Assembly (NCBI GenBank): GCA_020054105.1
Contig: JAGVLW010000053.1
Span: 4,698-68,697, forward strand
Source of the DNA: Alphaproteobacteria bacterium
GTDB taxonomy: Bacteria > Pseudomonadota > Alphaproteobacteria > Rickettsiales > SXRF01
Reading direction: 5' to 3'
Length of the DNA stretch: 64,000 nt
Numbering within the stretch: position 1 is the stretch's first letter; each line of letters opens with the position of its first letter. The translations under genes were made by a program, and so were the position numbers. A model generated the notes under the pieces. It saw only the letters and a program-made list of their open reading frames with translations, was not told the origin of the DNA and searched no databases. Of this stretch, positions 22,345 through 43,471 are shown piece after piece.

Positions 22345-22363
22345 TGGCGTGCCCGGCAGGAAT
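22345..22363. repeat. attL: displaced 3'-terminal 19 nt of tRNA-Arg
   Basis: Identical to 43396-43414. The sequences diverge immediately beyond both ends. Confidence 0.85.
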
Positions 22364-22461: not shown

Positions 22462-22504
22462 CATTACTACCTTCCCATGGTTTTACCATGGGAAGGTAGT
22501 AATG
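22462..22504. repeat. perfect 20-bp-stem inverted repeat just inside the island's left end
   Basis: CATTACTACCTTCCCATGGT-TTT-ACCATGGGAAGGTAGTAATG, read directly from the sequence. It abuts a degenerate second copy of the att core (AATGGCGTGCCC, 22501-22512). Confidence 0.7.
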
Positions 22505-23071
22505 GCGTGCCCTGGTGGACACGCTTCGAACTTTACCGGAGCTGCGCCTGGTTGTCATGCGCTACCCGGAGATGAAGCGCCAGCACATTGGCGAAATGCT
22601 CTGGCAGGCCGGAAACGCCGCCTGACCGCGCCTTTTACGGCCTTTGCGAAACCCGTTTCGCCGGTCATTTCGTTTTTCAATGTGCCGGAACCGAGGGTTT
22701 CCAATGCCTTGCGTTAAAAAAAGCGAAACGAAATCGGTTTATAGGTGCTGGCGCTAGCGAGATTCCGGGCGTTGCGCCCCCGCATAGCATTCGCGCCGGA
22801 AGGACCCAAAAAGCCCTCCCACTGTAAGTGGCTCTGGCTCTTGGTTTGCGGGAGAAGGTGTAAAACGGGCGCGCTTGCTGCCTTCCGGCTGGTGCCGCAG
22901 AAAGGCCAAAAAGTGCTGTGTTTTTGTGAAAAAGTGCACGTTTTCGGCCAAACTGTGCACGATCTCCCGTCATTGGTGCAAGTACGCCGGACTGTCTTAA
23001 GTCAACAAAATTCCCCAAAAGTCATCCTTAAGTCGATAAAATTCCCATATGACGCCGTTCGCCTGGTGGTA

Positions 23072-24166: not shown

Positions 24167-24761
24167 GTTTTACGTGCTCTATTTTATGAATCGCATCCGC
24201 CATCCAGCCGGGGATACGATCCATCGCCTGATGCAGCCCGGCTAAATCCTTGCCCGTCAGCACGCGCGCGCAACGGCTGATAATCTGGTCGTCCACGCTT
24301 TTCCTGCCAAGATAAGAAAGTGCCTGCAGCGTCAGATTAGCATGGTCAGGGATATTGTCGAGCCATGCCACGCGCGCGCGCTTCAACTGGATAGTCTGTC
24401 CTGCTACGCGCCGCGTGCGAATGGTCGCATTCGTGAGGTAAGATAGCTTGATCGGCACCTGCGTAGAGAGCCTCATAAGATTCGCCGCCATCGCGCCGGA
24501 GGGAAAAACATGATCGCCCGCCGCCAATGCACGCGCAATATTATCCGGCGTAGGCGAAAGCGGGCCGAGCAATTTGCTTTGTTTCGGATAATAGTAAATG
24601 CCACGATCCAAGCGACGGATCATGCCCTGCTTCGCCAGCCGCGACAGCACCTGATCCACGCTAGCGCGCGTGCCGACGTTCAGGAAGTCTCTGGGCGTAA
24701 AAACCCAGCCCGGCTTCCTGCGCCGTATTCTGCCTGTAATCTTATCGGTTATGGATGTCAT
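24141..24761 (-). CDS. abiEi: AbiEi-family antitoxin / transcriptional autoregulator
   Basis: From ATG 24761: MTSITDKITGRIRRRKPGWVFTPRDFLNVGTRASVDQVLSRLAKQGMIRRLDRGIYYYPK (wHTH). Overlaps abiEii by 26 nt. G-rich RBS. Confidence 0.75.
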   Translation of the reverse strand: MTSITDKITGRIRRRKPGWVFTPRDFLNVGTRASVDQVLSRLAKQGMIRRLDRGIYYYPKQSKLLGPLSPTPDNIARALAAGDHVFPSGAMAANLMRLSTQVPIKLSYLTNATIRTRRVAGQTIQLKRARVAWLDNIPDHANLTLQALSYLGRKSVDDQIISRCARVLTGKDLAGLHQAMDRIPGWMADAIHKIEHVKHGQIHRTA

Positions 24762-24779
24762 AATGATCCCCCCCCTATA

Positions 24780-24809
24780 TGTCAGATAATACCATAGTTT
24801 TATCTGACA
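24780..24809. promoter_or_regulatory. candidate AbiEi operator (10-bp perfect inverted repeat, 10-bp spacer)
   Basis: TGTCAGATAA-N10-TTATCTGACA, 19-48 bp upstream of the abiEi start. Confidence 0.4.
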
Positions 24810-24909
24810 AACAAGCCAGGTTATTCTGCACCAAGAATGCAAATTAACATATTGAATATTATTGTTATTAGTCTATGTGGTGTATCTTCCGCAATAAGAG
24901 GAGAGAAAC

Positions 24910-25192: not shown

Positions 25193-25552
25193 ATGAATAT
25201 CGATCACGCACTCATTGCCTTTTCCGCGCTGTCGCAGGAGACGCGGCTTTCCGTCTTCAAGCTGCTTATCGAGTATGGGAAAAGCGGCTCTCCGGCGGGA
25301 GCCTTGAGCGACCAGCTCGACATTCCGCACAACACGCTCTCGTTCCATCTCGCGCATCTCACCCATGCCGGACTGGTAACATCGCGCAAGCAGGGGCGGC
25401 AGATGATCTACGCCGCCAACTGCGACACGGTGGAAGGGCTGATCGATTACCTGAAGGAAAACTGCTGCATCCGCGAAGACGCATCTTCCGGCTGCGCCAC
25501 TGATTGCAAACCGAAACCAAAGCCTATGAAAAGGAGGCGGCATGATAGATGA
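25193..25552 (+). CDS. arsR: ArsR/SmtB-family metalloregulator
   Basis: FSALSQETRLSVFKLLIEYGKSGSPAGALSDQLDIPHNTLSFHLAHLTHAGLVTSRKQGRQMIY with a C-terminal Cys cluster (ENCCIREDASSGC). Confidence 0.88.
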   Translation: MNIDHALIAFSALSQETRLSVFKLLIEYGKSGSPAGALSDQLDIPHNTLSFHLAHLTHAGLVTSRKQGRQMIYAANCDTVEGLIDYLKENCCIREDASSGCATDCKPKPKPMKRRRHDR

Positions 25553-26516
25553 TATTTGGCATGGTAGAACCGCCTATATTAAAGGTTTTTGGGGATGGTC
25601 ACCAGAAACATGGGCCTCAATAGGTTTCCGCGACAACTATCGTGATACGTTAATCAGCAAAACCACCAATCCCTTCATTATGGTGATTTACATCACCATA
25701 CATTCAGGAGAGAAAGAAGAAATGCTGGGTAAAATCGTTGGATTTTATCTTGTTTCGCACGAGAAGGGTCATCGGGATGAATTTACTGCGCCTGAGCATT
25801 ATCAGAGACATCCTGAAAAATGGCCGCACGCGATAAGAGCTATTCGAGCCTTTAGTTTTCTTCCCGAATATTACCTTGATGTGTATGACTTTGATCCTGC
25901 TATCAAGCGTGCCGCAGTTCCCACGGCAGAAAGAGGGAGAGAGCTTTCGGATGAACAAGTAAAATTGCTTAAAACCATCCCCTACATTGAAGTGCCGATT
26001 TTTGGCGGCAATAGCGTTATTGACCGCACAATCCATGTTCCGCCAGCGGCAAAAACGAAGATTAAGGTGCGGGGTGGCCCAATCAACCGCTCTGGATATG
26101 TAGTGGATGGCGAACCTATCGATACCCCAAAGGAACTTTACTCACTTATTTTGAAAGGTGAGACATCCGTTTTTCTGGGCGATGCAGCGTCCCAATTCCA
26201 GCTATATAAAATCGGCTTATCTATGAGCCCACAAACCAGGCTTTCTGCATTTCAAGAAGCATTGCCCAGAACTTTGCCTGAAGGAAGAATAGGATGGTCT
26301 CTGCATCGTTCAACGCGGCGAGATGGCCATGAACCGTACCCTAACTTTGATGCCGCGCTTGTAGGGGAAGAGGCCATGAAAGATTATTTAGGTGCCCACG
26401 GCACATGGCTTGGCGGTGAATTTTATGCCGCGACAAAAGAGAATTTTGAAAAGGCGTGGGAGATAGGCCGCGCTACCGCTCTTCAACCCGTAGAAAGAAT
26501 AGGAGGCAAAAAATGA
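25542..26516 (+). CDS. hypothetical protein with a C-terminal T5orf172/GIY-YIG-superfamily-like domain
   Basis: 324 aa, visibly lower GC than its neighbours, with a strong AGGAGG RBS inside the arsR 3' end. The C-terminal LYKIGLSMSPQTRLSAFQ...GGEFYAATKENFEKAW resembles the T5orf172 pattern (hydrophobic-KIG-x-T/S...R...EFF). Confidence 0.55.
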   Translation: MIDDIWHGRTAYIKGFWGWSPETWASIGFRDNYRDTLISKTTNPFIMVIYITIHSGEKEEMLGKIVGFYLVSHEKGHRDEFTAPEHYQRHPEKWPHAIRAIRAFSFLPEYYLDVYDFDPAIKRAAVPTAERGRELSDEQVKLLKTIPYIEVPIFGGNSVIDRTIHVPPAAKTKIKVRGGPINRSGYVVDGEPIDTPKELYSLILKGETSVFLGDAASQFQLYKIGLSMSPQTRLSAFQEALPRTLPEGRIGWSLHRSTRRDGHEPYPNFDAALVGEEAMKDYLGAHGTWLGGEFYAATKENFEKAWEIGRATALQPVERIGGKK

Positions 26517-26983
26517 AACGCCTGCATGTGCATATCGCCGTCGAGGATTTAGAGAAATCCATCGGCTTTTATTCCACCCTGTTCGGCGAGAAGCCGAGCA
26601 AACAGAAGCCCGGCTATGCCAAATGGATGCTGAACGACCCGCGCGTCAACTTCGCCATCTCCGCCCGCGGCGCCAAGCCTGGGCTGGATCATCTGGGCAT
26701 CCAGGTGGACGCGCCGGAGGAACTGGAGGATTTACGCGAGCATCTGAAACGCGCCGATCTCGGCCTGTTCGACGAGGGCGAGGCCACCTGCTGCTATGCG
26801 GAATCCGATAAGTCGTGGGTGCGCGATCCTTCCGGCATCGCCTGGGAAGCCTATCACACGATGGCCGACGCCGAACTGTTCAGCGTGCCCAAACCTGAGG
26901 GCATGAGCGCCTGCTGCGCGCCGAAGATGGAAACCAAACCGGCCGCGTCCTCCTGCGGCACGGCGAAGTCCGACTGCTGCTGA
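26513..26983 (+). CDS. arsI: ArsI/CadI-family glyoxalase-fold metalloenzyme (C-As lyase-like)
   Basis: From ATG 26513: MKRLHVHIAVEDLEKSIGFYSTLFGE...LDHLGIQV...CCYAESDKSWVRDPSGIAWE, with a Cys-rich tail. Confidence 0.8.
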   Translation: MKRLHVHIAVEDLEKSIGFYSTLFGEKPSKQKPGYAKWMLNDPRVNFAISARGAKPGLDHLGIQVDAPEELEDLREHLKRADLGLFDEGEATCCYAESDKSWVRDPSGIAWEAYHTMADAELFSVPKPEGMSACCAPKMETKPAASSCGTAKSDCC

Positions 26984-27459
26984 TGAAAAACGTTCTGTTC
27001 CTCTGCACCGGAAATTCCTGCCGTTCCATCATGGCCGAGGGGCTGCTGAACCATTACGGCAAAGGCAAATTCCGCGCCTTTTCCGCCGGGAGCTTCCCCA
27101 CCGGCAAGGTGCATCCCATGAGCCTGGAAATGCTAAAGCGCCACGGCATGAGTGCGTTCGGCTATGAAAGCAAATCGTGGGACGTGTTCAAGAATCTCCA
27201 TGAACTCGACATCGTCATCACCGTCTGCGACAATGCCGCCGGTGAGGTCTGCCCTATCTTCCCCGGCGCGCCGGTCAAGGCGCATTGGGGCGCGCCCGAC
27301 CCGGCGCATTTTGAAGGAACGCCGGAAGCGGTGGAATCCGAATTTGACCGCGTGTTCGCCATACTGGAGCGCCGCGTCAAGGCGCTGGTAGCGCTGCCGG
27401 TGGAGACGATGGATAAGGAAGAACTCCGGCAACAACTCAACGCCATAGGCGAACTATGA
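26983..27459 (+). CDS. arsC: arsenate reductase (LMW-PTP / thioredoxin-coupled type)
   Basis: MKNVLFLCTGNSCRSIMAEG P-loop and a downstream TVCDNAAGEVCP redox-cysteine region. Confidence 0.9.
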   Translation: MKNVLFLCTGNSCRSIMAEGLLNHYGKGKFRAFSAGSFPTGKVHPMSLEMLKRHGMSAFGYESKSWDVFKNLHELDIVITVCDNAAGEVCPIFPGAPVKAHWGAPDPAHFEGTPEAVESEFDRVFAILERRVKALVALPVETMDKEELRQQLNAIGEL

Positions 27460-27924
27460 CCGACCAAACGACAATTGACCTGAAGCGGTTCAACAATAAT
27501 GCATACATCGAAGAGCGCGTTATTGCCGCCGACCTGGCGGATCGGGGTTCAGTTAAAACTGCTCTGCGCTATTTATACCTTGATGACGGCCCCATAAATC
27601 TACCGAGAGACAGGCAGAAAATAGCAGAGAAATATCTTGAGGACGCGGAAAGGATTCTGATTCGCTGGCTCGCAACCAGAACCAACGGCAGTGAACGAAA
27701 GAACTACGGGTCACGCGCGCTGATTACCGCCAGGTCAACCCGCTATCGTTGCCAGCAATGTGGGTTTTCAGACGTGCGCTGCCTGAATCTTGACCATATA
27801 GACGGCAGAGTGGATGGAACCGAATTTGCATGTCTCTGCGCGAATTGTCACACGATAAAATCACGACAAAAGGATTGGTCAGGAAAGGCATTGCGTCAGA
27901 AAGATGTAGAAGAGCAGACGCACT

Positions 27925-27935
<11 letters not shown>
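27456..27935 (+). CDS. HNH endonuclease-domain protein
   Basis: C-terminal [37 protein letters not shown] (C-x2-C...DH...C-x2-CH). Lower GC than arsC and acr3. ATGA overlap with arsC and an 11-nt overlap with acr3. Confidence 0.75.
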
Positions 27936-28965
<1,030 letters not shown>

Positions 28966-29077: not shown

Positions 29078-29875
29078 TTATGACTTTGGCCCTGTTAAAT
29101 CCGCCATCTCTTTCCGCGTGGTTTCTTTTGCCTCTCGCTCAAAATTTTCCGCCCTCAGCCGTGCAAAGCCTTCCGGATTTCTTTCGCAATGGTAATAGTA
29201 ATGGCGCATTTTCTGCTGTTTATCCGCTTCCCTGATTTCTCGCTCGGATTGCTTTATGTAGCCCGCCATCTTCAACCATTTAATGGTGGATTTACCAAAA
29301 ATGAAAAACAACAGGAGCGTTGCGAACCATGTGTATTTATCGCCCAAGAATTCGATGATGGCTGGTATAACCAATAGCCACAAAAAGAATAAGAAAAGTA
29401 GAACATGCTTTGCACGGCGCGTTTGCTGAACATGCGCAGCCACTTCCGCCTTGATCTGTTTTTCTGTCCGCGCAGGCAAATCGGCATACACCATGCGCAA
29501 ATGACCTTCCTGTTTTAGATGATCTGGGAATTCCCCATTTTTCAAGCCTCTCCGTACCATTACCAATTGGTCGGCGCCTGGATCGTAATATCCGCAGATA
29601 TGGTCATATGGCCTTACGGATGACAAATCCAATACGGTATCCGTATCGTCGGAAGCAGATGCCATCAGCGGAATAGGAAACTTTCTCGCCCAATACTGGA
29701 ATTCTTTTTCCAGTATCTCCGTTACGGTCGCGGGAGCCGATGGTGCAAGAAACGTCACGGTCAGATGGGCCAGCCACATATCCGAGCGCGGCGGCAGGTA
29801 TTCGATATAGAAGCCGTCTCTTGCCTCTTTAATTGGTTCCCAGATTATAAACCCATCATGCATTGCCTTGGTCAT
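29078..29875 (-). CDS. hypothetical two-TM membrane protein coupled to zorD
   Basis: 265 aa: a soluble N-domain of about 165 aa, two TM helices (HVLLFLFFLWLLVIPAIIEFL and WFATLLLFFIFG), and a charged C-tail. Its start lies 3 nt after the zorD stop. Confidence 0.6.
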   Translation of the reverse strand: MTKAMHDGFIIWEPIKEARDGFYIEYLPPRSDMWLAHLTVTFLAPSAPATVTEILEKEFQYWARKFPIPLMASASDDTDTVLDLSSVRPYDHICGYYDPGADQLVMVRRGLKNGEFPDHLKQEGHLRMVYADLPARTEKQIKAEVAAHVQQTRRAKHVLLFLFFLWLLVIPAIIEFLGDKYTWFATLLLFFIFGKSTIKWLKMAGYIKQSEREIREADKQQKMRHYYYHCERNPEGFARLRAENFEREAKETTRKEMADLTGPKS

Positions 29876-29878: not shown

Positions 29879-32800
29879 TTATAAGTAATCTCTCAGCTTA
29901 TCCGCCGCTTTTTCACAATCCACAGCATCAGCGCCGGTAATCAGCAATGCTTTGGGATACGCATTTTGCCATTCGTAATCGCGGGCCTGGAAGCGTAACG
30001 CACTCGTAATTCCGATACACCATGGCTCATGCGAGTAATAATGTTTCAGCGCTCGCTTTAAGTCCTCACATGCGCTGGGAGTAGAGTCACGATTGTTGCT
30101 ATGCTTGATCTGCACCAGCGCAACAATCAGCCCGTCACGGTTTTTAATCACCGTATCCGCGCCGCCGTCATGCGACGTAATGCATTTTTCCACACGCAGC
30201 CATGGTAACTGGCGCTGTAAAACCTGCCGTACATGATCTACATACTGGCGTTCATGCATTGCCAGTATATCTTGATAGCTGATCGCGCCAGCATCACCGG
30301 CTTTTCCCCATAGAACCTCATTTGCAAGGTAATCGCTATCTTCCTGCGACCCCGCCGGAGGCCAGAGCACTCTTTCACTTAATTTTCGCTTCTTTTCCAA
30401 CAAGCGATCAAGCACCAGATCGAAGCTATGTTCTCCCATGGAAGGGTGTTCCGCCATGGGATAATAAACATGCACCTCGCGTTCCTGGCCGATGCGGTAA
30501 ATGCGGTCGGTTGCCTGATCCTCCACGGCGGGATTCCACCAGCGCGTGAGATGGAAAACATGGTTTGCTGCGGTGACCGTAAGACCTACACCACCGGCGC
30601 GTGGGGAGAGCAGCATTACGTCAAATCCCGGTTTACCTGATTGAAACATATTCACCCGTTTCTGGCGGTCACTTCCTTTGACATCTCCCATGATGATCAT
30701 GGGCAGGTTTTCCAGCCGATAGCGCCTTTTCAATAATGAGGGAATCTCCCCATGCCATTTCTCAGGCTCAAGGAAGATAAGCGCTTTCTCTCCGCTCAAG
30801 GCAATACGGTCTAATTCCTTAAACATGGCTTTTAACCTGGCCGATTGCTCGATAAATACCTCATCCCCATCATACATTACCGGAGTTTGGTAGTGTGGGT
30901 GAAGTGAGAGATAACGCATTGCCTGTAGCGCTTGCAATGCCGCGCCTGGTTCGCCTTGGCGTGTTTTTGCCTGTTCGAGGGCGCTCGAATAATGTTCAGC
31001 TTGCAATGGCGGCATTATCTCACGGAGAGGATGCAAATGTTTCTTAGGGAGGCTATCCAATACTTCCTTCTTCATGCGCCGGAGCATAATGGCGGGTGCA
31101 TTTTCCGAGTGAGGACGCTTACGCACGCGATGGTTAAGCCTCTCTAGTTCCTCTTCGTTAGGAGGCTTGGCCGTAACGGCTTTTTCGTAGCGGTGGCTGA
31201 ATTCTTTGATGCTGCCCAGCAGGCCGGGGACGAGCGTATCCATAATGCACCACAGATCGCACAGCCTGTTTTCCACCGGCGTACCCGTCATGCCGATCCA
31301 GAAGTCCGCATTCAATGCTTTCGCGGCAATTGTCGCCAACGTATCGGGATTTTTTACCTTCTGCATTTCGTCGAATACCACCACGGAATAATGCTCGCGC
31401 ACAAACTCCCATTGGTAGCTGGCAAGCGTCTCATAGGTCGTTAGCACCCATGATGCTTGCCCTAATTTCCAGTTACGTTTGAGGTCTTTTAGCCATTTCC
31501 CATAGGCACGCACCGGCTCGCCGATACCTGGAGCAAACAGATGAACATCATGCTCTTTTATAATCCAGTTCTCCAATAGACCGGTTGGCGCTACCACAAG
31601 CATCGGCAAAGGTGAGAGCGCGCCTTTATCCATTAGTTCCCGTATCCACGCCATCGTTACCAGCACTTGGAAAGTTTTTCCGAGTCCCATGTCATCCGCT
31701 AGCAATACGCCACGAGTACCCGCACGATAATGTTGGGCAAGCCATTCAATGCCTTGCTTCTGGTGCTCTTTCGGCTGACTTTTTACGGCAGCAGGCATGG
31801 TAAATTTCGGCACGCGGCGTGGAATTAAGAGCACCTCATATTCTTTCTCCTGCAAATTTTCTTTGATATAAAGAACAGAAGATTTTTTCGGCGATGGCGC
31901 TGAAACCGCTGAAACGGGTTCATTCTTTTTATTTTCGGTGGATGTTGTTTTCTGATCCGGTCTGGCATTCGGTTTGAGCGCGCGTATGCTTTCCAATAAT
32001 TGTGTATCGGCCGGTATTTGAAACCCCTCATAATCGAATGATGGCGCCCCTGATTCGCAGAAGCCCATTGCTTGCTTCTCAAATTCAGCCAGCTTTTGTG
32101 GATTCTCGAAAGGGACGTCCTTATCGTCGATCTTTATATAGCGCGGCCACGGCGCCTTATCGGCCGTTTCTTCCGGTGGCCACCATATTTGCCCTTCGAT
32201 CATTATCCATGGAATAATGCGTTTCTGTTTTTCTCCGAATCCCACTACACGGTCGGAGAAAATGGCATCCAGCACCTCTCCGCTAAAATCTTCCCCCAAT
32301 TCTTCTTCAAATCGTTTGCGGGGATTCTGCAAAAAAGCAAGGCGCTTCTCGCCGGATTCGGCGCGGACTTTATGGACTACCTCTAATGCCCGATGAACCT
32401 TGGGACTGAGGACAAGATAACGCCCGGCTTCCAGCGTATAGTGCGCACGCATGGTTGTCGATTCTCTGAAATGATGGTGAAAAGCTTCAAGATCGGCGCG
32501 GGTAAGCAGGTCAGAAAATACCCGCTCTTGTTCATTATAGACTCCTTTACCAGCCTGCTTGAGAACCGGTACTACGGTATAGCCATCATCAGTGGATTCC
32601 GCTTCGATCTGGAAAGCGTCTGCATAATATAATCGTAGACGGCCAATGCGACCGCCTTTCTTAATCTGGTCGTGAGCATCTTCCGGCAAGTGCTGGAGAA
32701 GAGATTGTATTGCATGTATGTGCAGTAAGCGTTCGCCAGCCAGCCGCGTTGTCATACTGCGAATATTTTTTACTTCTTCCGTGATTCGCCAAATATGCGG

Positions 32801-33214
32801 CGGCATCAACTGCAAGGCTCCTGCAATTTCTACAAAACAGCCTTTTTCATTAACGCTCGTATAATGTCGGCCACCGGTCGTAAGCCAGCTGTAATCAATA
32901 CGGTAATTCTCATTATCCAATGCTCCGTCATCGGATAAACTCAGCACGCCGGTGAAATATCCCGGCAGGTCGAGCGCCTGACGGAGTTGGCCGTTATCCT
33001 CGGCAAGCGCGTCCATCAACCGCTTCGGAGTTACCGCCATGGTGGAGGTATCGGGTCTCGTTACACCATCCTGCTCATGCTGTTCCAACCATCCGAGTAA
33101 GACGTCTGCTCCCGTATTCTTTGCCTCCGTCCATTGCTCCAGTGGCAATGCCAGGTTTCCTTTCCGTAACTGGAAGGAAATCAGTCCATTGTCTGAATTG
33201 GAATGATGCAGCAT
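29879..33214 (-). CDS. zorD: ZorD-like SNF2-family helicase with a C-terminal Mrr/restriction-endonuclease-like domain
   Basis: SNF2 motifs LLADDMGLGKTFQVL, VVFDEMQKVKN, GTPVENRLCDLW and LLSPRAGGVGLTVTAANHVFHLTRWWNPAVEDQATDRIYRIGQ. The C-terminus SHDGGADTVIKNRDGLIVALVQIKH has a D...(Q/E)xK nuclease pattern. Confidence 0.8.
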   Translation of the reverse strand: MLHHSNSDNGLISFQLRKGNLALPLEQWTEAKNTGADVLLGWLEQHEQDGVTRPDTSTMAVTPKRLMDALAEDNGQLRQALDLPGYFTGVLSLSDDGALDNENYRIDYSWLTTGGRHYTSVNEKGCFVEIAGALQLMPPHIWRITEEVKNIRSMTTRLAGERLLHIHAIQSLLQHLPEDAHDQIKKGGRIGRLRLYYADAFQIEAESTDDGYTVVPVLKQAGKGVYNEQERVFSDLLTRADLEAFHHHFRESTTMRAHYTLEAGRYLVLSPKVHRALEVVHKVRAESGEKRLAFLQNPRKRFEEELGEDFSGEVLDAIFSDRVVGFGEKQKRIIPWIMIEGQIWWPPEETADKAPWPRYIKIDDKDVPFENPQKLAEFEKQAMGFCESGAPSFDYEGFQIPADTQLLESIRALKPNARPDQKTTSTENKKNEPVSAVSAPSPKKSSVLYIKENLQEKEYEVLLIPRRVPKFTMPAAVKSQPKEHQKQGIEWLAQHYRAGTRGVLLADDMGLGKTFQVLVTMAWIRELMDKGALSPLPMLVVAPTGLLENWIIKEHDVHLFAPGIGEPVRAYGKWLKDLKRNWKLGQASWVLTTYETLASYQWEFVREHYSVVVFDEMQKVKNPDTLATIAAKALNADFWIGMTGTPVENRLCDLWCIMDTLVPGLLGSIKEFSHRYEKAVTAKPPNEEELERLNHRVRKRPHSENAPAIMLRRMKKEVLDSLPKKHLHPLREIMPPLQAEHYSSALEQAKTRQGEPGAALQALQAMRYLSLHPHYQTPVMYDGDEVFIEQSARLKAMFKELDRIALSGEKALIFLEPEKWHGEIPSLLKRRYRLENLPMIIMGDVKGSDRQKRVNMFQSGKPGFDVMLLSPRAGGVGLTVTAANHVFHLTRWWNPAVEDQATDRIYRIGQEREVHVYYPMAEHPSMGEHSFDLVLDRLLEKKRKLSERVLWPPAGSQEDSDYLANEVLWGKAGDAGAISYQDILAMHERQYVDHVRQVLQRQLPWLRVEKCITSHDGGADTVIKNRDGLIVALVQIKHSNNRDSTPSACEDLKRALKHYYSHEPWCIGITSALRFQARDYEWQNAYPKALLITGADAVDCEKAADKLRDYL

Positions 33215-33216: not shown

Positions 33217-34650
33217 TCAGCGTACCCTGAAATCATTGTCACGGATATGACAGCCCGTATGCTTGTCTATGAAATCTCTGAATTTGCGCTGCCATGTGTA
33301 ATTAGGGCTACCGCCATGGCTGAATGCTTCATTGCACGCGGGCGCCTCCACACGTAATGTCGGGTCGGAATATTCTTCATGAATTAATGTAGGCGCATTT
33401 TTATGGCTGGCCTTCCAAAAACGGCATTTGCCATTATGATTGAATTCCGCGATTACCAGATCGCCGATGCGCATCAATAGCACGCAGCTGGCGGGGCTAG
33501 TGGAATTCGTAAGCTGGGCAGCAGCAGTAGCGTCTTTTTCCAGTATTCTCCTGGCGAGCGCATAGCCTTGTTTGCCTAGCACAACGCGCGCATCGTCTAT
33601 GGATTGCTGACGGATATATGCTCTCCAGAAAGCACGCCGGTATTCCCACTGTTCTTCGCCTATTTCGCTGATTATCTAGAAAAATTGCTCGATGGTGACG
33701 CCAGCCAGCCACCGGCGAAGCACATGCATAGCAGAATCACTTACCCCAGCCCAACCGCTACCAGCCTGGTTGCGGAACCGAGGGTCTTTGAAAGCGATAA
33801 GAAGACGATTGAGAATATTTTTACGCACGGCATCGGATGGGCGCTCATCCCCCCACGGCTCCAATAACGTTTCAATCAATTCCTTGCGTAACGTCTGGAA
33901 GCGCGGATTAGCCTCATCTTTCATTACATAATCCCATGCGCTTTCTACCAGTTCTGGTTTCTTAGTGAGCTGTGAGCGAATTTGTTTAAGTATGGCGCGC
34001 CCAAGGGCCGTGCTATATCCACCTGCTTCTAACTCTCCCGTCAGACCATATTCTTTCCAGTATTGCTTGGGCTTCGTCTCATAATGTGACAGATAACGCA
34101 ACGCGGCCTCCTTTAGCCATGACGCGTCCTTGAACAGGCCAATCGTCTGATCGCGTTCATGCCAGGCTTTAAGCGCGTCTTTCAATGCAGATTGTGTAAA
34201 GGCTTCCTGTACCCATTCTGCCATACGCTTTTCGACGGCGGCATGTTTGCCATAATCACGCAGGTAGACATGGATTATTCTTTTCCACATCCGAACATTG
34301 CTGGAGGCGATAAGTGTTGCATGCAGTTGTTTCATGAACGGTTCCTGATCCGCCAGGCAGGGCGAGGAGTGCCATAATATCCATGCTACTTTTTTCCAGT
34401 CGCTACCAGTTATCTCATCCCATTTATTCTGCTGCGATGCGGCCAGGAAATGCGCATGCAATGTATCTAGTTCCACAGGCGTGGGCTGTTTGCCCGGCCC
34501 ATGATGGAGTTGGACGACTTTCTGCGCCGTAGCTACCATTTTCGGTGAAGGTAGCGCCATCATGCGCGTAGGCATCGACGATGCCTGGTTCAACGTATGG
34601 CGAAAACGGGGCGACGGTGCGGATGCTGCTGGCGAAATATCGGCTGTCAT
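33217..34650 (-). pseudogene. zorC: ZorC-like EH-signature protein interrupted by a single in-frame TAG (33676-33678)
   Basis: ORFs 33676-34650 (324 aa) and 33217-33582 (121 aa) share one frame (33678-33582 = 96 nt). Read-through gives about 477 aa. The segment after the stop contains RRAFWRAY and VIAEFNHNGKCRFW, the E-x2-H region I associate with the EH_Signature domain. Confidence 0.6.
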
Positions 34651-34653: not shown

Positions 34654-35409
34654 TTAATGCTCCGCCACGGCTCGTTTAATGCGTTCTACGTCTTCCGGCG
34701 TTGGTGATCGCATGATAAAGCGCAAGTCGATGCGGCGGTTCTGTGCAGCATCATTTTTCTTAACTATCGGTCTGCGTGCTTCGTAGCCGCTTACGGCCAG
34801 CACCGGAACATTTTGCATATTCAGTATATCATCATCCAGGACGGGCTGTGCCGCGGTCAACCCTCGAAACACGTTGATGGCGCGATTGGCGGAGAGTGTC
34901 CAGTTATCGAAGCCAGTTTCTGCCCCGGTGCGATCCGTATGGCCTTCGATCAATACCGTTTCCAGGGCTTCCTGGCTTTTAAGGCTGAGCTTTGCGCATG
35001 CTTCTTTTAATGTATCGTTCTTTACACGCGCCAGGCAGGGAAGATAGGTTCTCAATACTCCAGCCAACTTGATAAGTGCCTCATTGCCGTCTGCACTTAG
35101 CTCGTATCTTCCCCGGTCAAATAAAATTTTGTCCGGCAGGCGGAGAATGCCTTGTTCTTCATCCACCTCAACTTCTATGCCGAGTTCTTTGAGGCTTTTT
35201 TTAATTTCCTGCAGCACTATATTCCGGGATTCGATCATTGCGGTCACCTGTTCGGTGACATCCCTTGCTGTCTGCTCTGTATTGCGCATGTTACTGGCAA
35301 AGAGCATCAGCATAATAATAAAGATAAAAAGTATGCCTACGAGCAAATCCGTGAATGAAGCAAAATAGCTTTCATCATGGGTGTCGGTGGCTATGTCATG
35401 TGCGCTCAT
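34654..35409 (-). CDS. zorB: ZorB-like MotB/OmpA-family protein
   Basis: TM with a conserved Asp (FASFTDLLVGILFIFIIML) and a C-terminal OmpA-like peptidoglycan-binding motif IEGHTDRTG...NWTLSANRAINV...NRRIDLRF. Confidence 0.8.
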   Translation of the reverse strand: MSAHDIATDTHDESYFASFTDLLVGILFIFIIMLMLFASNMRNTEQTARDVTEQVTAMIESRNIVLQEIKKSLKELGIEVEVDEEQGILRLPDKILFDRGRYELSADGNEALIKLAGVLRTYLPCLARVKNDTLKEACAKLSLKSQEALETVLIEGHTDRTGAETGFDNWTLSANRAINVFRGLTAAQPVLDDDILNMQNVPVLAVSGYEARRPIVKKNDAAQNRRIDLRFIMRSPTPEDVERIKRAVAEH

Positions 35410-35419: not shown

Positions 35420-37384
35420 TCATGCCGTCGCGGTTTTAGGAAGCTGCTTGTTTTGTTCCTCGCGCTCTTCCGTCAATTCGTTAATCGCGCCACTTAATGT
35501 CTGAATCGCCTCATTGAACGAACTGTCGAAGGATGTGACAAATTCCTTGACCTTCTGCTGGAACTCATCGGTGCCTTTTGCCAAGGTTGAGAAGGCATTT
35601 CCTAGGTCTGTATCGACTTTCTCAAAGCGAGTCTGGTAGCTGCTCCAGCTTGTATCCATACGCGTCATTACCTGTTTCAACGACTCACTGGCGCCGGACA
35701 TTGAACTGAATGCTCCCATAATAATGTCCTGTGCTTTCTGAATGGTGCCTACCGCCTCCATCATCTGACGGGAAAGCTGCTCGACGGGAGTAGCGGCCTT
35801 GGCCAACGTGCCGGAAGCATTTACCAGTTCCTTTACGTTTCCCTGCATGCTGTCCGCCACTTGCTTGAATTCCAACATGTGCCCACCGATCTTGACATGC
35901 ACATCATCCAGCTTCTGGGAAGAGCGGGTAAAATCATCTGCCGCGCCTTTGATTAACTGGCCAGCATCGTTTAACTGACCGCTGGTAGCCAGGAGGCGTT
36001 CCAGTGCGCCAGCCATTTGCCCGACGACATCTTTCAATGGCTCCAGATTACCGGAAAGCCCTTGCACTGTTGCCGCTAGTTCGCCGTGCGTCTTGCTCAG
36101 ATTACCGGCACTTTCCTTATTGCCGTCTGCCGCGCCTTGAATCTGTCCCCCAGCATGCTTGATGCTCTCCGCAATAATTTTAAGCGATTCCAGCACTTCC
36201 GTGAATTGCATGAGTGCTTTTTGTACGCCGGAAAAATCCGTAACGAAACGATCCATGGTTTCCGCCATTTTCTGCGTGGCATTACCCATTTCCTGCCCGA
36301 AATTACCGCCGAAGCCCTCTATCTTTCCGACAAGCTGATCCAGGTTGCTCGTAAGCGCCTTGATATTGCTTACCATCTGGTTCATTCCCTCGCCGGTATG
36401 CTGATGCATATTGCGCAGGAATTCTTCGAGTACAGATTTCAGAGCACCCTCATTACTGGAGTGATCGCGCTCGGCAATTTTCTTCAGCGTATCCACCAGC
36501 GGCGCCATTGCCTCGGAAACGCTCTTAGGGAGAGCATGGTTCATGATGCTTTCAAATTTAAGAGTGATATTGTCCGCCAGATTAGCCAGGTGAAATTTCT
36601 GCTCTTCTTGCACTAACAAAGAAGAATGCAAAAGTTTTTCTGCAGGTACAAATTCTGTACGCATCTCGATACCAATACAGAAATCGTGTATTTGCTTTCT
36701 AAGATTATTGAATAAGCGCCGCTGTATGACGGATAACACCAGACTAAGCAAAATCGCAAAAACAGAGGTGATAAATTTGGTAGACGCCACTCTGAGGAGT
36801 TTTTGCAATCCTTCGGTACTGGCAGAAGCAGTTGCCAGATCATGCTGTGCGACGGCGATAGCGGCGGCTAGCCCCAGAAACGTAAAAAGCAAACCGAGGC
36901 CAATAAGATAATTAGGGAATGCATAGAGCTGGGATAGATTGCGTCGCGCTCCAAGCACCGATTCTAATGTAAAATATCGCTGCGGGCGCGCCGTAAGGTG
37001 AACGGCTTGACGCATAGGCTTCGATATTTCAGCCGCAACGTCCCGACGGGGCGGTGGCGGTATAATCAATGTTTCCTGATATTGCTGCCATAGCTCCCGC
37101 AGGCAGTCTATTTGCTGTAACTCTCTGACATGCTTGTCAAAATGATCGTAAAACTCCTTTTGCAATTCATCTATGTGCTGATCGAACTCCCCCTCATGCG
37201 GTCGGTTTCTACCTAATGCAACGACTTTAAGCGCCTCTCTAAAGGCATCACGGACTTGGCGGGTGCTGGTAAAAGTATCGACAAGGGCAAAAATAAATAC
37301 GCCGCTGATAATGGCGATGAACACCGCAGGCGTATAAGGATCTGCCAGGATATCCCACAGGGGTTGTAAAAATGCGTGTTCCAT
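35420..37384 (-). CDS. zorA: ZorA-like MotA/ExbB-family channel protein with a long helical tail
   Basis: ATG at 37384 (the track start at 37420 is TTG). N-terminal TM, cytoplasmic loop and a TM pair (YLIGLGLLFTFLGLAAAI and KFITSVFAILLSLVLSVI), then roughly 400 aa of helical low-complexity tail. Confidence 0.8.
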   Translation of the reverse strand: MEHAFLQPLWDILADPYTPAVFIAIISGVFIFALVDTFTSTRQVRDAFREALKVVALGRNRPHEGEFDQHIDELQKEFYDHFDKHVRELQQIDCLRELWQQYQETLIIPPPPRRDVAAEISKPMRQAVHLTARPQRYFTLESVLGARRNLSQLYAFPNYLIGLGLLFTFLGLAAAIAVAQHDLATASASTEGLQKLLRVASTKFITSVFAILLSLVLSVIQRRLFNNLRKQIHDFCIGIEMRTEFVPAEKLLHSSLLVQEEQKFHLANLADNITLKFESIMNHALPKSVSEAMAPLVDTLKKIAERDHSSNEGALKSVLEEFLRNMHQHTGEGMNQMVSNIKALTSNLDQLVGKIEGFGGNFGQEMGNATQKMAETMDRFVTDFSGVQKALMQFTEVLESLKIIAESIKHAGGQIQGAADGNKESAGNLSKTHGELAATVQGLSGNLEPLKDVVGQMAGALERLLATSGQLNDAGQLIKGAADDFTRSSQKLDDVHVKIGGHMLEFKQVADSMQGNVKELVNASGTLAKAATPVEQLSRQMMEAVGTIQKAQDIIMGAFSSMSGASESLKQVMTRMDTSWSSYQTRFEKVDTDLGNAFSTLAKGTDEFQQKVKEFVTSFDSSFNEAIQTLSGAINELTEEREEQNKQLPKTATA

Positions 37385-38542: not shown

Positions 38543-38755
38543 ATGACACATTCAGAACACCCGGCCGGTGACCGGCTGCTAACGCGGAAGGAAGCGGCCG
38601 ATTATCTCGGCGTCGCGGAAAACACCCTGTCGGTATGGGCGAGCGAGGGGCGCTACAGGCTTCCCTATATCAAGGTCGGGCGGCTGGTGAAATACCGCCT
38701 GTCCGATCTGAACGAATTCCTCGCGCGCAATACGCAGGGCGGCGCGCATGAATAA
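38543..38755 (+). CDS. AlpA/MerR-like excisionase-family HTH protein
   Basis: ATG at 38543 with a GGAGG RBS. LLTRKEAADYLGVAENTLSVWASEGRYRLPYIKVGRLVKYRLSDLNEFL is the typical excisionase HTH_17 pattern. Confidence 0.75.
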   Translation: MTHSEHPAGDRLLTRKEAADYLGVAENTLSVWASEGRYRLPYIKVGRLVKYRLSDLNEFLARNTQGGAHE

Positions 38756-41141
38756 CATTTCCTCCTTCTCCAGCCTGCGCGAACTTGGCTTCAGTGTTTT
38801 CCCGCTCCAGGCGCGGAGCAAGAAACCTGTCGGCAGTTGGAAGGAGTATCAGACCACATCAGCTAATGCCGGGGAATGCGCCGCATGGGAAACGGCCTAT
38901 CGCTACAACCCCTACAATATCGGCATTGCCACCGGCAGCGTGTCCGGCTGCTTCGTGCTGGATGTGGACGGCGAGCAAGGACGTGAGACGTTGGCGAAGC
39001 TGATCGCAGAGCATGGTGAGTTGCCTGCCACGCCCACCGTTAAAACCGGTAAGGGACAGCATTATTATTTCCGCTATCCGGCGGGATATACAGTGCGCAA
39101 CCTTGCAGGGCGGAGTGTGCATGGCGAGATTCTTCCCGGCATCGACCATCGTGGCGACGGCGGATATGTGGTGGCGCCGCCCTCGATCCATCCCGACGGC
39201 ATGGCGTATGAATGGATCGTCAGCCCGTGGCAGACGACGCTGGCGGATGCACCGGCATGGCTGCTGGAACTGGTGGCCGTGCCGGAGAATAATGAGACAC
39301 TGGATTTCAACGGCGCGGCTGACAATATTCCCGCCGGGGCTTATCTCGAAAAAGCCCTCGCCAACGAACTGACACTACTGACACAAGCTCCGGCCGGGCA
39401 GCGCAATGACCGGCTGAACCGGGCGTCATTCAGCCTCGGCCAGCTTATTGCGGCGGGGCTGGACGAGGACATGGTAAGGCGTGAATTGCATGCAGCCGCG
39501 CGCATGGCCGGGTTGGAAGACGTGGAGATAACACCCACCATCGACAGCGGTATCGCCGCCGGGAAGCAGAAGCCGCGCGACATTCCTGCTAATGCCGATT
39601 CCGCTAATTCTGCTAACGCCAATGCGAACAGGATTAGCGGAATTAGCAATGCCAGCATTAGCGAGTGGCAGACACCCACTCCGTTGACACAGGAAATTGC
39701 GGCGCAGGAACCGTACCCGGTGGAAGCGTTGCCGGATGTTATCCGCGAGGCGGTGGCCAGCTATCAGGCTTACGGCCAGCAGCCGGTGCCCATCGTCGCC
39801 ATCGCCGGGTTGGCGAATGTCAGCCTGGCCTGTCAGGGATTGGCCGATATTGCCCGCGACGAAGTGCTGACCGGCCCCATCTCGCTCAACTTCATTGTCA
39901 CCGCCGACAGCGGCGAGCGCAAAACCTCGGCGGATAAAGTCTTTTCCAAAGCGGCGCGCGAATGGGAAAAAGCAAAGCGCGCAGCTATGCAGGCGGAATT
40001 AAAACAGGCGAAAATTCTGGTCGACGCCTATCTCGCCACCCGCGCGGGCATTACGCAGCAGATCACCAGCGCCAGCAAGAACGGCGGCACGGCGGATCAG
40101 CTGGGCGCGCTCCAAGCGGCATTGCAGCAGATTGATACGGAAGCGCCGCAACTACCCGTCATCCCCACGCTGCTGTTCGAGGACGTGACGCAGGAGGCCT
40201 TGATCGACGAACTGGCCAGGGGGCATCCATCGGCGGCGCTGTACAGTGACGAGGCGGCAATTGTTATCGGTTCACATGGATTTCACCAGGAGCGTTGCCT
40301 GCGCTATTTCGGTCTGATCAACCGTTTGTGGGACGGCAACGGTTACAAACGCCAGCGCATTACCAGCGAGAGCACCAGTTTCTACGGCAGGCGCATGACC
40401 TGCTCGCTGATGATGCAGCTTTCGGTGTTGAAGACACTCATAAGCGTGGCCGATGGGCAGAGCCGCAATACCGGATTTCTCGCCCGCGTGCTGATTGCCT
40501 GCCCGGATAGCACGATGGGCACGCGGTTCTACAAGGAACCGCAGTCACTCGACCGGGCACTGGACGCATTCCACGCGCGCATTCATGCGTTGCTGGAAAT
40601 GCCGTTGCCGGTGGACAAGGAAACGGGCGAACTCACGCCGCCATTGCTAGGCTTAAGCAATGAAGCGCACCAGATGTGGGTGGAGTATTATAACGAGACG
40701 GAATTAGCCATCGGTGCACGGGGAGAATTTTATTCTGTCCGCGATTTTGCCGCTAAGTCCGCCGAGAATGCGGCCAGGCTTGCCTGCAACTTTCATATCT
40801 TCCAGCAGGGCGCGACCGGCGAGGTGGACAGCGACGCCATGCAGCGCGCCATCACCATCATGCAATGGCACCTGCGCGAAACGCTGCGCGTATTCAGCCA
40901 CATCGATACGCCGGAGGAAATGACGCATGCCCGGCTGCTGCTGGAATGGCTGAAGCGGAAGAATCACCGCACCATCACCGCCAGCGAGATCGCCACGCAC
41001 GGCCCTAACCAGCTGCGCCAGCGCGAAGCGCGTCATGCCGCGCTCAAAACCCTCTGCGAGCACGGTTACCTGCGTGAGCGCGCCGTCGGCCGCAACCGGC
41101 AATACGAGGTCAATCCCTCCCTGGCGGAGGTAACGCCATGA
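38748..41141 (+). CDS. bifunctional primase-polymerase (PrimPol N-domain) fused to a DUF3987/YfjI-like helicase-type domain
   Basis: The N-terminus FPLQARSKKPVGSWKEYQ...CFVLDVDGEQG...KTGKGQHYYFRYP...GIDHRGDGGYVVAPPSIHPDGMAYEW is Prim-Pol-like. The C-terminal half (LLFEDVTQEALIDELARGHPSAALYSDEAA...RLWDG) is DUF3987-like. Confidence 0.85.
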   Translation: MNNISSFSSLRELGFSVFPLQARSKKPVGSWKEYQTTSANAGECAAWETAYRYNPYNIGIATGSVSGCFVLDVDGEQGRETLAKLIAEHGELPATPTVKTGKGQHYYFRYPAGYTVRNLAGRSVHGEILPGIDHRGDGGYVVAPPSIHPDGMAYEWIVSPWQTTLADAPAWLLELVAVPENNETLDFNGAADNIPAGAYLEKALANELTLLTQAPAGQRNDRLNRASFSLGQLIAAGLDEDMVRRELHAAARMAGLEDVEITPTIDSGIAAGKQKPRDIPANADSANSANANANRISGISNASISEWQTPTPLTQEIAAQEPYPVEALPDVIREAVASYQAYGQQPVPIVAIAGLANVSLACQGLADIARDEVLTGPISLNFIVTADSGERKTSADKVFSKAAREWEKAKRAAMQAELKQAKILVDAYLATRAGITQQITSASKNGGTADQLGALQAALQQIDTEAPQLPVIPTLLFEDVTQEALIDELARGHPSAALYSDEAAIVIGSHGFHQERCLRYFGLINRLWDGNGYKRQRITSESTSFYGRRMTCSLMMQLSVLKTLISVADGQSRNTGFLARVLIACPDSTMGTRFYKEPQSLDRALDAFHARIHALLEMPLPVDKETGELTPPLLGLSNEAHQMWVEYYNETELAIGARGEFYSVRDFAAKSAENAARLACNFHIFQQGATGEVDSDAMQRAITIMQWHLRETLRVFSHIDTPEEMTHARLLLEWLKRKNHRTITASEIATHGPNQLRQREARHAALKTLCEHGYLRERAVGRNRQYEVNPSLAEVTP
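39587..39663. repeat. GCTAAT-rich inverted-repeat module, copy 1 (inside the PrimPol linker)
   Basis: CCGCTAATTCTGCT (39601-14) and ATTAGCGGAATTAGCAAT (39633-50), flanked by further GCTAAT/ATTAGC units. Confidence 0.55.
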
Positions 41142-41638
41142 CCGCCGCTGCTGCTAATCCCGCTAATTCTGCTTATCCACGCCGGTTAGCTGCATTAGCG
41201 GAATTAGCAATCATCCCCCACCATCACTTCAGGAGACCACCCATGACCCACCGCAAAGCTCTTACCGAATCCGCCAGGAAAGACTGGATGTATTTTCCCT
41301 ACGACGAGCGCTCGGCGCTTTCCCTGTTCAACCATGATGCCTGCGAAGGTGTGGAACTGATCCATGTGCTCATGGCGCAATATCAGGCACAGGCGGAAAC
41401 GCTAGCCGGGATCGTGCATACGCTGCGGTTGTTCGCCCACAACTACCGGCGCTCGTATCACCGCCTGGCCGCAAAAGGATTGCTCATCCGTATCGACGAC
41501 CATTACCGGAAGCAGGCGGAAGCCGTCATCGAAAAAACGGAACGCCTGGTCGAAAGCTGCGCCCTGCCGATGCCGGAGGGCGGCTACCTGGTCTGCGACG
41601 GGGTGTTTCCCGGCCGGGACAGGGATTGCGACGAATAG
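41138..41638 (+). CDS. hypothetical island protein
   Basis: 166 aa. The first ~35 codons are the repeat module, so the internal start MTHRKALTE (41240) is at least as likely. Confidence 0.4.
   Translation: MTAAAANPANSAYPRRLAALAELAIIPHHHFRRPPMTHRKALTESARKDWMYFPYDERSALSLFNHDACEGVELIHVLMAQYQAQAETLAGIVHTLRLFAHNYRRSYHRLAAKGLLIRIDDHYRKQAEAVIEKTERLVESCALPMPEGGYLVCDGVFPGRDRDCDE
41153..41211. repeat. GCTAAT-rich inverted-repeat module, copy 2 (just after the PrimPol stop)
   Basis: CCGCTAATTCTGCT (41160-73) and ATTAGCGGAATTAGCAAT (41194-211), both identical to the copy 1 cores. Confidence 0.55.
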
Positions 41639-41662: not shown

Positions 41663-41866
41663 ATGCCGGTAGATCAAGACATACTCGAACGTAAGGCCGA
41701 CGAGCTGACACAGACCGAGCTTTTCGAGCGAATTGTCTACAAAATCCGCCGCAAATACGACTTTCAAATCAGCGAGATGGAGGCCATTGCGGCTGCACGG
41801 AACCTTATCGGATTTACCCAAACACTGCTTGAACTCTCCAAACATAGCGGTAATGTCGAGCCATGA
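41663..41866 (+). CDS. hypothetical small protein
   Basis: 67 aa. Overlaps the recombinase start by 4 nt. Confidence 0.4.
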   Translation: MPVDQDILERKADELTQTELFERIVYKIRRKYDFQISEMEAIAAARNLIGFTQTLLELSKHSGNVEP

Positions 41867-43437
41867 GCCGGAAAATCGTCCGATTTGAAGAATATAAGCC
41901 CGCTGGCCTGAAAAAGGCCATCATCCTGGCGCGCGTCTCCACCAAAGACCAGGAAGAGGGCTATTCCATAGCTGCGCAGAAACACCGGCTGCAGCAATAT
42001 TGCGAGCGCAAGGGATTGGAGATCATTCGCACTTTCGAGCTGGTGGAATCCTCTACCCACGGTGACCGCAAGGATTTCGCGCAGATGATCGACTTCATCC
42101 GCAAGCAGCGCGAGTGTGTGGCGTTAGTAGCGGATAAAGTGGACAGGGTTCAGCGCAGCTTCAAGGAATTCCCGATGCTCGATGCGCTGATCCAGGAAGG
42201 CAAGCTGGAGCTGCATTTCAATACCGAAAATTACATCATCCACCGCGAATCCGTTTCGCAGGAACGGCTGATGTGGAGCATTGGCGTGGTGATGGCGCAG
42301 TCCTACGTCGATTCCCTGCGCGATAACGTCAAGCGCAGCTTTGACCAGAAGATACGCACCGGCGAATGGATCGCCACCGCGCCGGTCGGCTATATGAATG
42401 CCAAGGATAGCCGTGGCCGTGGCACGGTAGTGGTGGACGAAGCGCGGGCGCTGCTGGTGCGGCGGCTGTTCGAAGAATATGCCACCGGCAGCTATACGCA
42501 AGGCCAGATGGTAAAAGAGGCTCGGCAATGGGGATTGCGCAATGCCCGCGGCAAGCAGGAGCCGCTGGTGCGGTCACAGATAAACCGGGTACTGCAAAAT
42601 CCGTTTTACTACGGCGAGATGGAAGTGAAGGGTAAGCGCTATCCGCACGTCTATACGCCGCTGATTACCAAAGACCTGTACGATAGATGCCAGGCGGTGC
42701 GGCTGGGCTGGCATAAGAAGCCATTCGCCTATGCCGGGAAGGATTACATCTTCCGTGGGCTGATTACCTGCGACACTACCGGCAAGACGGTTACGGCCGA
42801 TACAAAAACCAAGCGTTACCAGAACGGCAATACCGCCGAATATACCTACCTGATGTGCTGGAACCCCGAAGACCCGGACAAACGCATGTGGGTGCGGGAA
42901 GATACCGTCCTGGCCGAGGTGGAGCAGGTATTCAAGAACATGGGCATTGATGACGATATTTACGAGGACGTGGTCGCCTATGCCCGCAACACCTGCGATA
43001 CCGAAAAGGCTTTCCATAAGCGCCAGATGCAGGAAACCACCCGCGAAATCGAGGCCATCCAGGGCAAGCTCAATAAGCTGATGGACTTGCTGCTGGAGGG
43101 CGCTATCGAAAAGGCCGAGCATGATGAGAAACGCGCCGCCCTGCGGAGCAGGCAGGTTGATCTGACCAACCTGATTAACAGTTACCACGGCGCCGATGAC
43201 GGCTTCCGCGACGCCGTGGTGGATATGCTGGAACTCAGCAAAAAAGCCCATGAATTGTTCGTAAGTTCGAACAACCAAGGCAAAAGGCGGCTTATCAATT
43301 TCGTGTTTTCGAACCTGTCCCTGAAAGGCGAAAAGCTGGCATTCCGCCTGAGACAGCCCTTTGACCAGTTTGTCAATGCGGTCAAAATTGAAGAATGGCG
43401 TGCCCGGCAGGAATCGAACCTGCGACCCACAGCTTAG
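41863..43437 (+). CDS. large serine recombinase (integrase)
   Basis: Resolvase-type N-terminus KKAIILARVSTKDQEEGYSIAAQ, a recombinase domain, a Cys-containing segment (LITCDTTGK...YLMC) and a coiled-coil C-terminus. The last 14 codons overlap tRNA-Arg. Confidence 0.9.
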   Translation: MSRKIVRFEEYKPAGLKKAIILARVSTKDQEEGYSIAAQKHRLQQYCERKGLEIIRTFELVESSTHGDRKDFAQMIDFIRKQRECVALVADKVDRVQRSFKEFPMLDALIQEGKLELHFNTENYIIHRESVSQERLMWSIGVVMAQSYVDSLRDNVKRSFDQKIRTGEWIATAPVGYMNAKDSRGRGTVVVDEARALLVRRLFEEYATGSYTQGQMVKEARQWGLRNARGKQEPLVRSQINRVLQNPFYYGEMEVKGKRYPHVYTPLITKDLYDRCQAVRLGWHKKPFAYAGKDYIFRGLITCDTTGKTVTADTKTKRYQNGNTAEYTYLMCWNPEDPDKRMWVREDTVLAEVEQVFKNMGIDDDIYEDVVAYARNTCDTEKAFHKRQMQETTREIEAIQGKLNKLMDLLLEGAIEKAEHDEKRAALRSRQVDLTNLINSYHGADDGFRDAVVDMLELSKKAHELFVSSNNQGKRRLINFVFSNLSLKGEKLAFRLRQPFDQFVNAVKIEEWRARQESNLRPTA

Positions 43438-43471
43438 AAGGCTGTTGCTCTATCCCCTGAGCTACGGGCAC
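43396..43471 (-). tRNA. tRNA-Arg (anticodon UCU)
   Basis: Reverse complement is GTGCCCGTAGCTCAGGGGATAGAGCAACAGCCTTCTAAGCTGTGGGTCGCAGGTTCGATTCCTGCCGGGCACGCCA. It folds as a cloverleaf with a 7-bp acceptor stem, a CUUCUAA anticodon loop, a GGTTCGATTCC T-arm and an encoded CCA. Confidence 0.93.

Follow-up and report, generated by a model that had tools for sequence, protein, structure and literature searches.

The zorC gene of a type I Zorya operon on an alphaproteobacterial genomic island is split by an in-frame amber codon, which is probably a real and evolutionarily very recent single-base nonsense mutation that inactivates the gene. The split reading frame is collinear with intact ZorC proteins, the TAG is its sole interruption, and the sequence beyond the TAG carries no further decay. 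The operon was analysed within a window of 64,000 nt, the whole stretch of contig studied here.

The split zorC frame, its operon and its island

The genes zorA, zorB, zorC and zorD are co-oriented and contiguous on the minus strand from 37384 to 29879, and all four match type I PADLOC models. By these matches the type I Zorya operon, zorABCD, is complete here, and the PADLOC and Pfam results bear out the sequence-only reading that had identified the split gene as the zorC of such an operon. The features of the operon are as follows.

35420 to 37384, minus strand: zorA, 654 aa from ATG 37384 (PADLOC ZorA1, E 1.8e-128; 98.5% amino-acid identity over 654 codons to locus L057)
34654 to 35409, minus strand: zorB, 251 aa, MotB/OmpA-like (PADLOC ZorB1, E 1.1e-83; Pfam OmpA)
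33217 to 34650, minus strand: zorC reading frame (translation; joined ZorC1 profile match; Pfam EH_Signature in both pieces)
33679 to 34650, minus strand: N-terminal zorC piece, 324 aa from ATG 34650 (PADLOC ZorC1 positions 5-317 of 462, E 6e-54)
33676 to 33678, minus strand: premature in-frame TAG, codon 325 (translation, codon alignment to homologues)
33583 to 33675, minus strand: 31 open codons between the TAG and a GTG, still ZorC coding sequence (profile match 324-349, E 3.5e-6)
33217 to 33582, minus strand: C-terminal zorC piece from the GTG, 121 aa (PADLOC ZorC1 positions 352-459 of 462, E 9.4e-27)
29879 to 33214, minus strand: zorD, 1111 aa, Snf2 helicase and Mrr-like nuclease, apparently intact (PADLOC ZorD1, E 1.2e-270; Pfam SNF2-rel_dom, Helicase_C, Mrr_cat)

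The start of zorA is probably ATG 37384 and not the TTG at 37420 listed by the ORF finder, because the TTG has no Shine-Dalgarno (SD) sequence and 654 aa is also the length of ZorA in the related loci L001 and L057. A 265-aa ORF with two hydrophobic segments (29078-29875, minus strand) begins 3 nt past the zorD stop and shares the strand and frame of zorD. Searches of Pfam, PADLOC, NCBIfam and PHROGs gave it no match, nor did tblastn against 59 fetched Zorya loci. It may belong to the operon as a fifth gene specific to this lineage, or else be an island gene with no relation to it.

Translation of minus-strand positions 33217-34650 gives one zorC frame of 477 codons and a stop codon, with a single internal stop. 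The ORF listing returns the same two ORFs, and the coordinates and sequences quoted for them in the sequence-only reading were all correct. The first canonical start past the TAG, GTG 33582, is in the same frame as the initiating ATG (34650 - 33582 = 1068 = 356 x 3); a frameshift was rejected as the cause of the split, since both pieces share one frame. The 31 codons between TAG and GTG read IISEIGEEQWEYRRAFWRAYIRQQSIDDARV. The frame closes with TGA at 33219-33217 and, after a spacer of 2 nt, the zorD ATG follows at 33214. The motif EFNHNGKCRFW is encoded in the downstream piece, with the codon for E402 at 33447-33445, and this piece holds E402, H405, C409, H445 and W453; the 324-aa N-terminal piece has no E/H residues. 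The latter has been deposited as a separate protein, P0002 (NCBI/JGI). Some JGI product names in this region do not fit the domain content and look misassigned: P0002 is named 'YbcV (DUF1398 family)', and P0012, which is ZorD, 'predicted CopG family antitoxin'.

The two pieces match successive parts of a single PADLOC ZorC profile, PDLC00622, and the gap codons by themselves match the part that lies between. With the stop masked, residues 17-469 of the joined protein align in one stretch with profile positions 5-459 of 462 (327 bits, E 3.8e-98), as against 182 and 92 bits for the separate pieces. As the pieces and the gap codons match one continuous ZorC profile, they constitute one gene with one lesion and not two genes; the chance neighbouring of two unrelated ORFs was rejected on the same collinear match. 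The Pfam family EH_Signature (PF15611) likewise covers nearly the whole of ZorC, with profile positions 6-274 and 309-422 of 423 found in the two pieces (57.5 and 36.6 bits; cut-off 27.5).

An AlphaFold2 model of the joined protein, built from an 11-sequence alignment (pLDDT 82.6, pTM 0.76), predicts residues 1-324 to be entirely α-helical and places the TAG in a short loop after helix 305-323. Beyond it the model has a helix at 335-347, which is the WEYRRAFW segment, and an α/β module at 353-465 with E402 and H445. The sole significant fold match in a Foldseek search of the PDB was 8R68, E. coli ZorC (E 4.3e-8, probability 1.00, TM 0.52/0.62); no other PDB entry matched below 1e-3. In the profile alignment to 8R68, E402 corresponds to E400 of the E. 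coli protein (EcZorC), and R338 and W342 to R335 and W339. H445, R338, W342 and W453 fall in invariant columns and, with E402, are all encoded downstream of the TAG. The TAG had been described from the sequence as lying just before the signature domain. As to the Pfam domain this is not so, the break being inside EH_Signature; as to the fold it is loosely apt, because the break sits at the junction of the α-helical and α/β regions and the part with E402 and H445 is downstream. The locus thus has the family profile, the EH residues and the fold of ZorC but not a single uninterrupted polypeptide, and is classed as a disrupted member of the ZorC family, a pseudogene.

The operon is carried by an integrative element.

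22345 to 43414, unstranded: integrative island of about 21 kb with the Zorya operon (exact 19-nt direct repeat at the ends, tRNA-Arg(TCT), recombinase)

An exact 19-nt direct repeat (family D3), TGGCGTGCCCGGCAGGAAT, is found at 22345-22363 and 43396-43414, and its right copy is the 3' end of a tRNA-Arg(TCT) gene at 43396-43471. A large serine recombinase ORF (41863-43437) overlaps this tRNA gene by 42 nt. A recombinase adjoins a tRNA gene, and the 3' end of that gene recurs at the opposite border, which makes the element a tRNA-integrated genomic island. GC content is about 0.50 over 30-38 kb, where the Zorya genes are, versus 0.55-0.59 in the flanks, and the repeat, the tRNA-Arg, the serine recombinase and this lower GC together support the mobile-element setting that had been proposed. 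Also on the island are a PrimPol/DUF3987 primase-helicase gene (38748-41141), an AbiEii/AbiEi (DUF6088) toxin-antitoxin pair (23072-24842, minus strand) and an arsenic-resistance-like cluster (25542-28965, plus strand) of low-molecular-weight phosphatase/ArsC-like, glyoxalase-fold and ACR3/SBF transporter genes.

Several further repeats were seen. A third copy of the 19-nt repeat, 84% identical, lies at 22501-22519, inward of the left end by 156 nt, and might have been left by a previous or tandem integration. Two families of short direct repeats, rich in GCTAAT/ATTAGC, occur at both 39588-39650 and 41147-41211, one of 27 nt (81% identity) and one of 18 nt (exact). The first copy of each lies within the PrimPol/DUF3987 gene, and the second, about 1560 nt away, where the following 166-aa ORF begins. 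Just beyond the left end of the island is an OMP β-barrel gene (21391-22044), a 75%-identical counterpart of which adjoins zorA in L001 (L001 1683-2174, window 21764-22261). The two neighbourhoods are related but rearranged, the OMP gene being on the opposite side of the operon.

Homologues across the TAG and the state of the downstream sequence

A protein search returned P0002 itself and ten full-length homologues of 455-478 aa that align across the TAG, the closest being P0001, P0003 and P0004 (77%, 61% and 48% amino-acid identity). The TAG column, which is flanked by conserved EQFF and II residues, reads T, K, E, R, K, E, D, A, E and D in the ten proteins and is thus a variable position. 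At this codon L001 has ACG (Thr) and L007 has AAA (Lys), so that the TAG stands in place of a sense codon; AAG, GAG, CAG, TCG, TTG, TGG and TAY are each one substitution away from it.

An uninterrupted gene is the norm in this family. Of 50 species-representative genome loci with the EH motif, 49 are complete upstream of it, and in each of these the motif is preceded by no fewer than 369 open codons, compared with 76 in the window. Hence, on the question of whether homologues usually have two genes at this position, the ten nearest proteins and 49/49 loci answer that zorC is single and uninterrupted. With the 152 post-stop residues as query, an exhaustive HMMER search returned 1039 relatives, from which the best 148 non-self representatives of 50% clusters were taken; 116 of them are at least 400 aa long. 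The N-termini of the 32 shorter representatives are scattered, like those of contig-edge fragments or sporadic truncations, and all but one of these proteins keep WxYRxxFW, while none begins at the equivalent of GTG 33582. No stop was found at the TAG position among the approximately 200 homologues examined. The window protein and P0001-P0011 form a clade of short ZorC proteins, 455-478 aa, and about 100 of the 148 cluster representatives are in the 450-499 aa class.

Closer relatives were sought in several collections. Near and distant DNA searches with the zorC region found no match in E. coli genomes and plasmid collections, and neither the ZorB 90% cluster nor a metagenome scan yielded a relative more than 77% identical that covers the TAG site. 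The loci L057 (90% nucleotide identity) and L058 (93.6%), reached through the ZorB 90% cluster and coming from the metagenomes JGI 3300019487 and ENA ERZ27251177 respectively, end at zorC codons 146 and 68, short of the TAG. A degenerate DNA pattern for GVTIEQFFxII recovered the 61% relative alone from metagenome contigs, and viral contigs gave no match. As no close relative covers the TAG, both the ancestral codon and the mutation's age are inferred and not observed.

The 152 codons downstream of the TAG are open, with no more stops or frameshifts, as had been noticed from the sequence. Conservation is complete on both sides: downstream, 18/18 columns invariant among the ten homologues and 29/29 columns conserved at 90% or more are kept, and upstream, 11/11 and 15/15. 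Identity to P0001 is 80% downstream of the TAG versus 77% upstream, and dN is 0.119 versus 0.131; synonymous differences of the window from L001 and L007 have reached saturation (pS about 0.75), so that only dN and identity are comparable and omega is unusable. Against L057 and L058, zorA and zorB give omega values of 0.02-0.03 at a dS of about 0.31, which indicates strong purifying selection. The omega of 0.16 for zorC against L057 is based on 9 nonsynonymous and 15 synonymous changes, too few to weigh, and covers the poorly conserved N-terminus only. Drift of the 456 nt downstream over a comparable time would be expected to leave tens of substitutions and some changes of conserved residues, and none of this is seen. 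This suggests that the TAG is much younger than the divergence from L057 and L058, or is not real, or that the region is still translated.

Accounts of the amber codon

The account we consider likely is that a sense codon at position 325, most simply AAG or GAG, was changed to TAG by one base. Of the options offered by the sequence-only reading, the very recent nonsense mutation is thereby the one favoured: zorC is normally a single gene, a sense codon has been replaced, and there is no other lesion. The remainder of the Zorya operon is intact and the location is a mobile island where defence genes turn over, both of which are consistent with such a mutation; the intact downstream sequence would be expected equally from a sequencing error or from a region that is still translated.

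Translation would then end after the 324 α-helical residues, and the product would lack the α/β module with E402 and H445 as well as the helix with W335, R338 and W342. In E. coli ZorC, Glu400 and His443 form an electrostatic network with Asp332, Arg335, Trp339 and Trp458, and the EH motif is required for DNA binding (Hu et al., PMC11946911). In the E. coli type I Zorya either substitution alone, E400A or H443A, suffices to abolish DNA binding and defence, and the C-terminal globular domain of the 560-aa protein is necessary for both DNA binding and defence (Hu et al., PMC11946911). By analogy, the 324-aa product would be without everything known to be needed for DNA binding, and, on the precedent of E400A and H443A, this Zorya copy most likely either does not function or is strongly impaired. 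Loss of anti-phage defence is therefore what the comparison predicts for this Zorya locus, the loss of ZorC function being extrapolated from an E. coli protein only about 15% identical. Expression of zorD may be lowered as well, with ribosomes now stopping 459 nt upstream of its closely coupled ATG; a polar reduction is plausible because zorD has a weak SD (-3.9 kcal/mol) and its start normally comes 2 nt after the zorC stop.

An artefact of sequencing, assembly or consensus building, in which the organism or most of its cells have a sense codon and the contig a wrong or minority base, is unlikely but deserves consideration. It would explain the perfectly kept downstream part, and the TAG site comes right after a T5 run. 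The host looks like a member of an uncultured alphaproteobacterial lineage, since its AlaS is at most 73-74% identical to any other and its named neighbours are all MAGs, so that the contig may represent the MAG or SAG consensus of several coexisting variants. The change is nevertheless a substitution that keeps the frame, unlike the homopolymer indel typical of long-read errors, and the window yielded no second gene split by a same-frame TAG. A single other TAG is followed by a long open extension, from 16547-17689 into 17705-18202, which joins unrelated solute-binding protein and methyltransferase genes. Substitution errors in polished assemblies are rare in comparison with real single-lesion bacterial pseudogenes.

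Read-through or amber suppression that supplies enough full-length ZorC for function, possibly at a reduced and tuned level, appears improbable. Low-level read-through of UAG is present in all bacteria, the codons downstream, including the 31 gap codons, are all intact and ZorC-like, and the TAG position tolerates many residues, so any inserted amino acid would suit. Against this, ARAGORN and Rfam found no suppressor or CUA tRNA in the 64-kb window, where the Rfam scan returned two tRNAs only, tRNA-Arg(TCT) and tRNA-Val(GAC). Stop usage in 40 long non-overlapping ORFs of the window is TAG 13, TGA 14 and TAA 13; with TAG ending 13/40, it has clearly not been reassigned, and suppressing it efficiently would come at a cost. 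The RNA surrounding the premature TAG folds into less structure than its shuffled controls (z = +2.25) and thus offers no local structure, the absence of the stop from about 200 homologues means that there is no conserved recoding site, and recency accounts more simply for the preserved downstream part. Efficient stop-codon read-through, another of the options raised earlier, accordingly finds no backing in the window's tRNAs, its frequent TAG stops or the RNA structure. The even stop-codon usage is itself unusual for a genome of about 55% GC. Programmed recoding, whether by read-through or with selenocysteine or pyrrolysine, was rejected, as there is no conserved stop, no RNA signal and no CUA tRNA in the window; pyrrolysine or selenocysteine at codon 325 was rejected also on the variable column and the lack of any homologue with a stop.

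It is very improbable that the TAG is real and maintained, such that the cell makes mostly the 324-aa helical N-fragment and a trickle of full-length read-through ZorC that tunes or gates a costly nuclease-based defence, or that ZorABD act without a DNA-binding ZorC; nothing positive was found for either. In such a case the N-fragment might retain its ability to dock on ZorD or the ZorA tail.

Least credible of all is a two-polypeptide ZorC, in which the 324-aa piece and a 121-aa piece re-initiated at GTG 33582 assemble non-covalently. The break does lie near the predicted junction of the all-α part (1-324) and the α/β part, and gene calling in one source did return the 121-aa piece as a protein (P0018). 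The 31 gap codons, however, carry the invariant W335, R338, F341 and W342 of the W-x-x-R-x-x-F-W helix, and these four residues, among them the equivalents of R335 and W339 in the EH network of EcZorC, would be lost from both products. SD pairing at GTG 33582 is 0 kcal/mol, versus -5.6, -5.8 and -3.9 kcal/mol at the zorB, zorC and zorD starts, and none was found at the other in-frame starts downstream of it. Lying 96 nt past the stop, the GTG is also too far away for termination-reinitiation coupling, and as codon 357 it falls within a predicted β-strand (353-358 in the AlphaFold2 model). The survey of natural homologues, in which no protein starts at this point and all the shorter ones but one retain WxYRxxFW, argues in the same direction. 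Translation of the C-terminal piece on its own is thus unlikely, and the lost invariant residues, the missing SD, the start within a predicted strand and the lack of any such homologue speak against the earlier suggestion of a functional two-part ZorC.

Comparison with known Zorya systems

The reference for this comparison is EcZorI, the E. coli type I Zorya (Doron et al. 2018; Hu et al. 2024, PMC11946911; PDB 8R68). As in EcZorI, the gene order in the window is zorA-zorB-zorC-zorD with tightly spaced or coupled starts, the joined ZorC has EH_Signature, the E and H residues and the R and W residues of the network, and ZorD combines Snf2 with an Mrr-like nuclease. Two differences stand out: zorC is broken by a TAG at codon 325, and, unlike the 560-aa EcZorC, the proteins of the window clade (455-478 aa) end about 24 residues past W453, which corresponds to W458 of EcZorC, without the C-terminal globular domain. 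Sequence identity between the window ZorC and EcZorC is only about 15%.

Two intact homologues are encoded in the same zorABCD operon as that of the window: P0001 (455 aa, 77% amino-acid identity; Logan assemblies SRR267868xx, loci L001-L006) and P0003 (478 aa, 61%; an uncultured alphaproteobacterium MAG, loci L007 and L059). L001 is like the window in having about 75% nucleotide identity to it across zorA-zorD and in a zorC that ends 2 nt before zorD. The P0001 and P0003 loci differ from the window in their sense codon (ACG or AAA) at the TAG site and in their flanks, which consist of D5_N primase, OMP, LCM and TonB receptor genes.

A literature search on Zorya pseudogenes or premature stops returned nothing relevant. 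For annotation, the two ORFs should be merged as one zorC pseudogene and the locus counted as a probably inactive type I Zorya. It would serve as a small, clean example of defence islands decaying by single point mutations, of a kind that escapes tools requiring only HMM matches for all four genes. Were the TAG to prove real and the system still protective, for which no evidence was seen, the locus would inform the domain requirements of ZorC. In its single premature stop, its otherwise intact sequence and its horizontally acquired island, the locus resembles ordinary single-lesion bacterial pseudogenes, and on present evidence no difference distinguishes it from them. It is a known kind of type I Zorya operon in a new lineage, with one premature amber codon in zorC, and most likely represents ordinary gene decay with no new mechanism.
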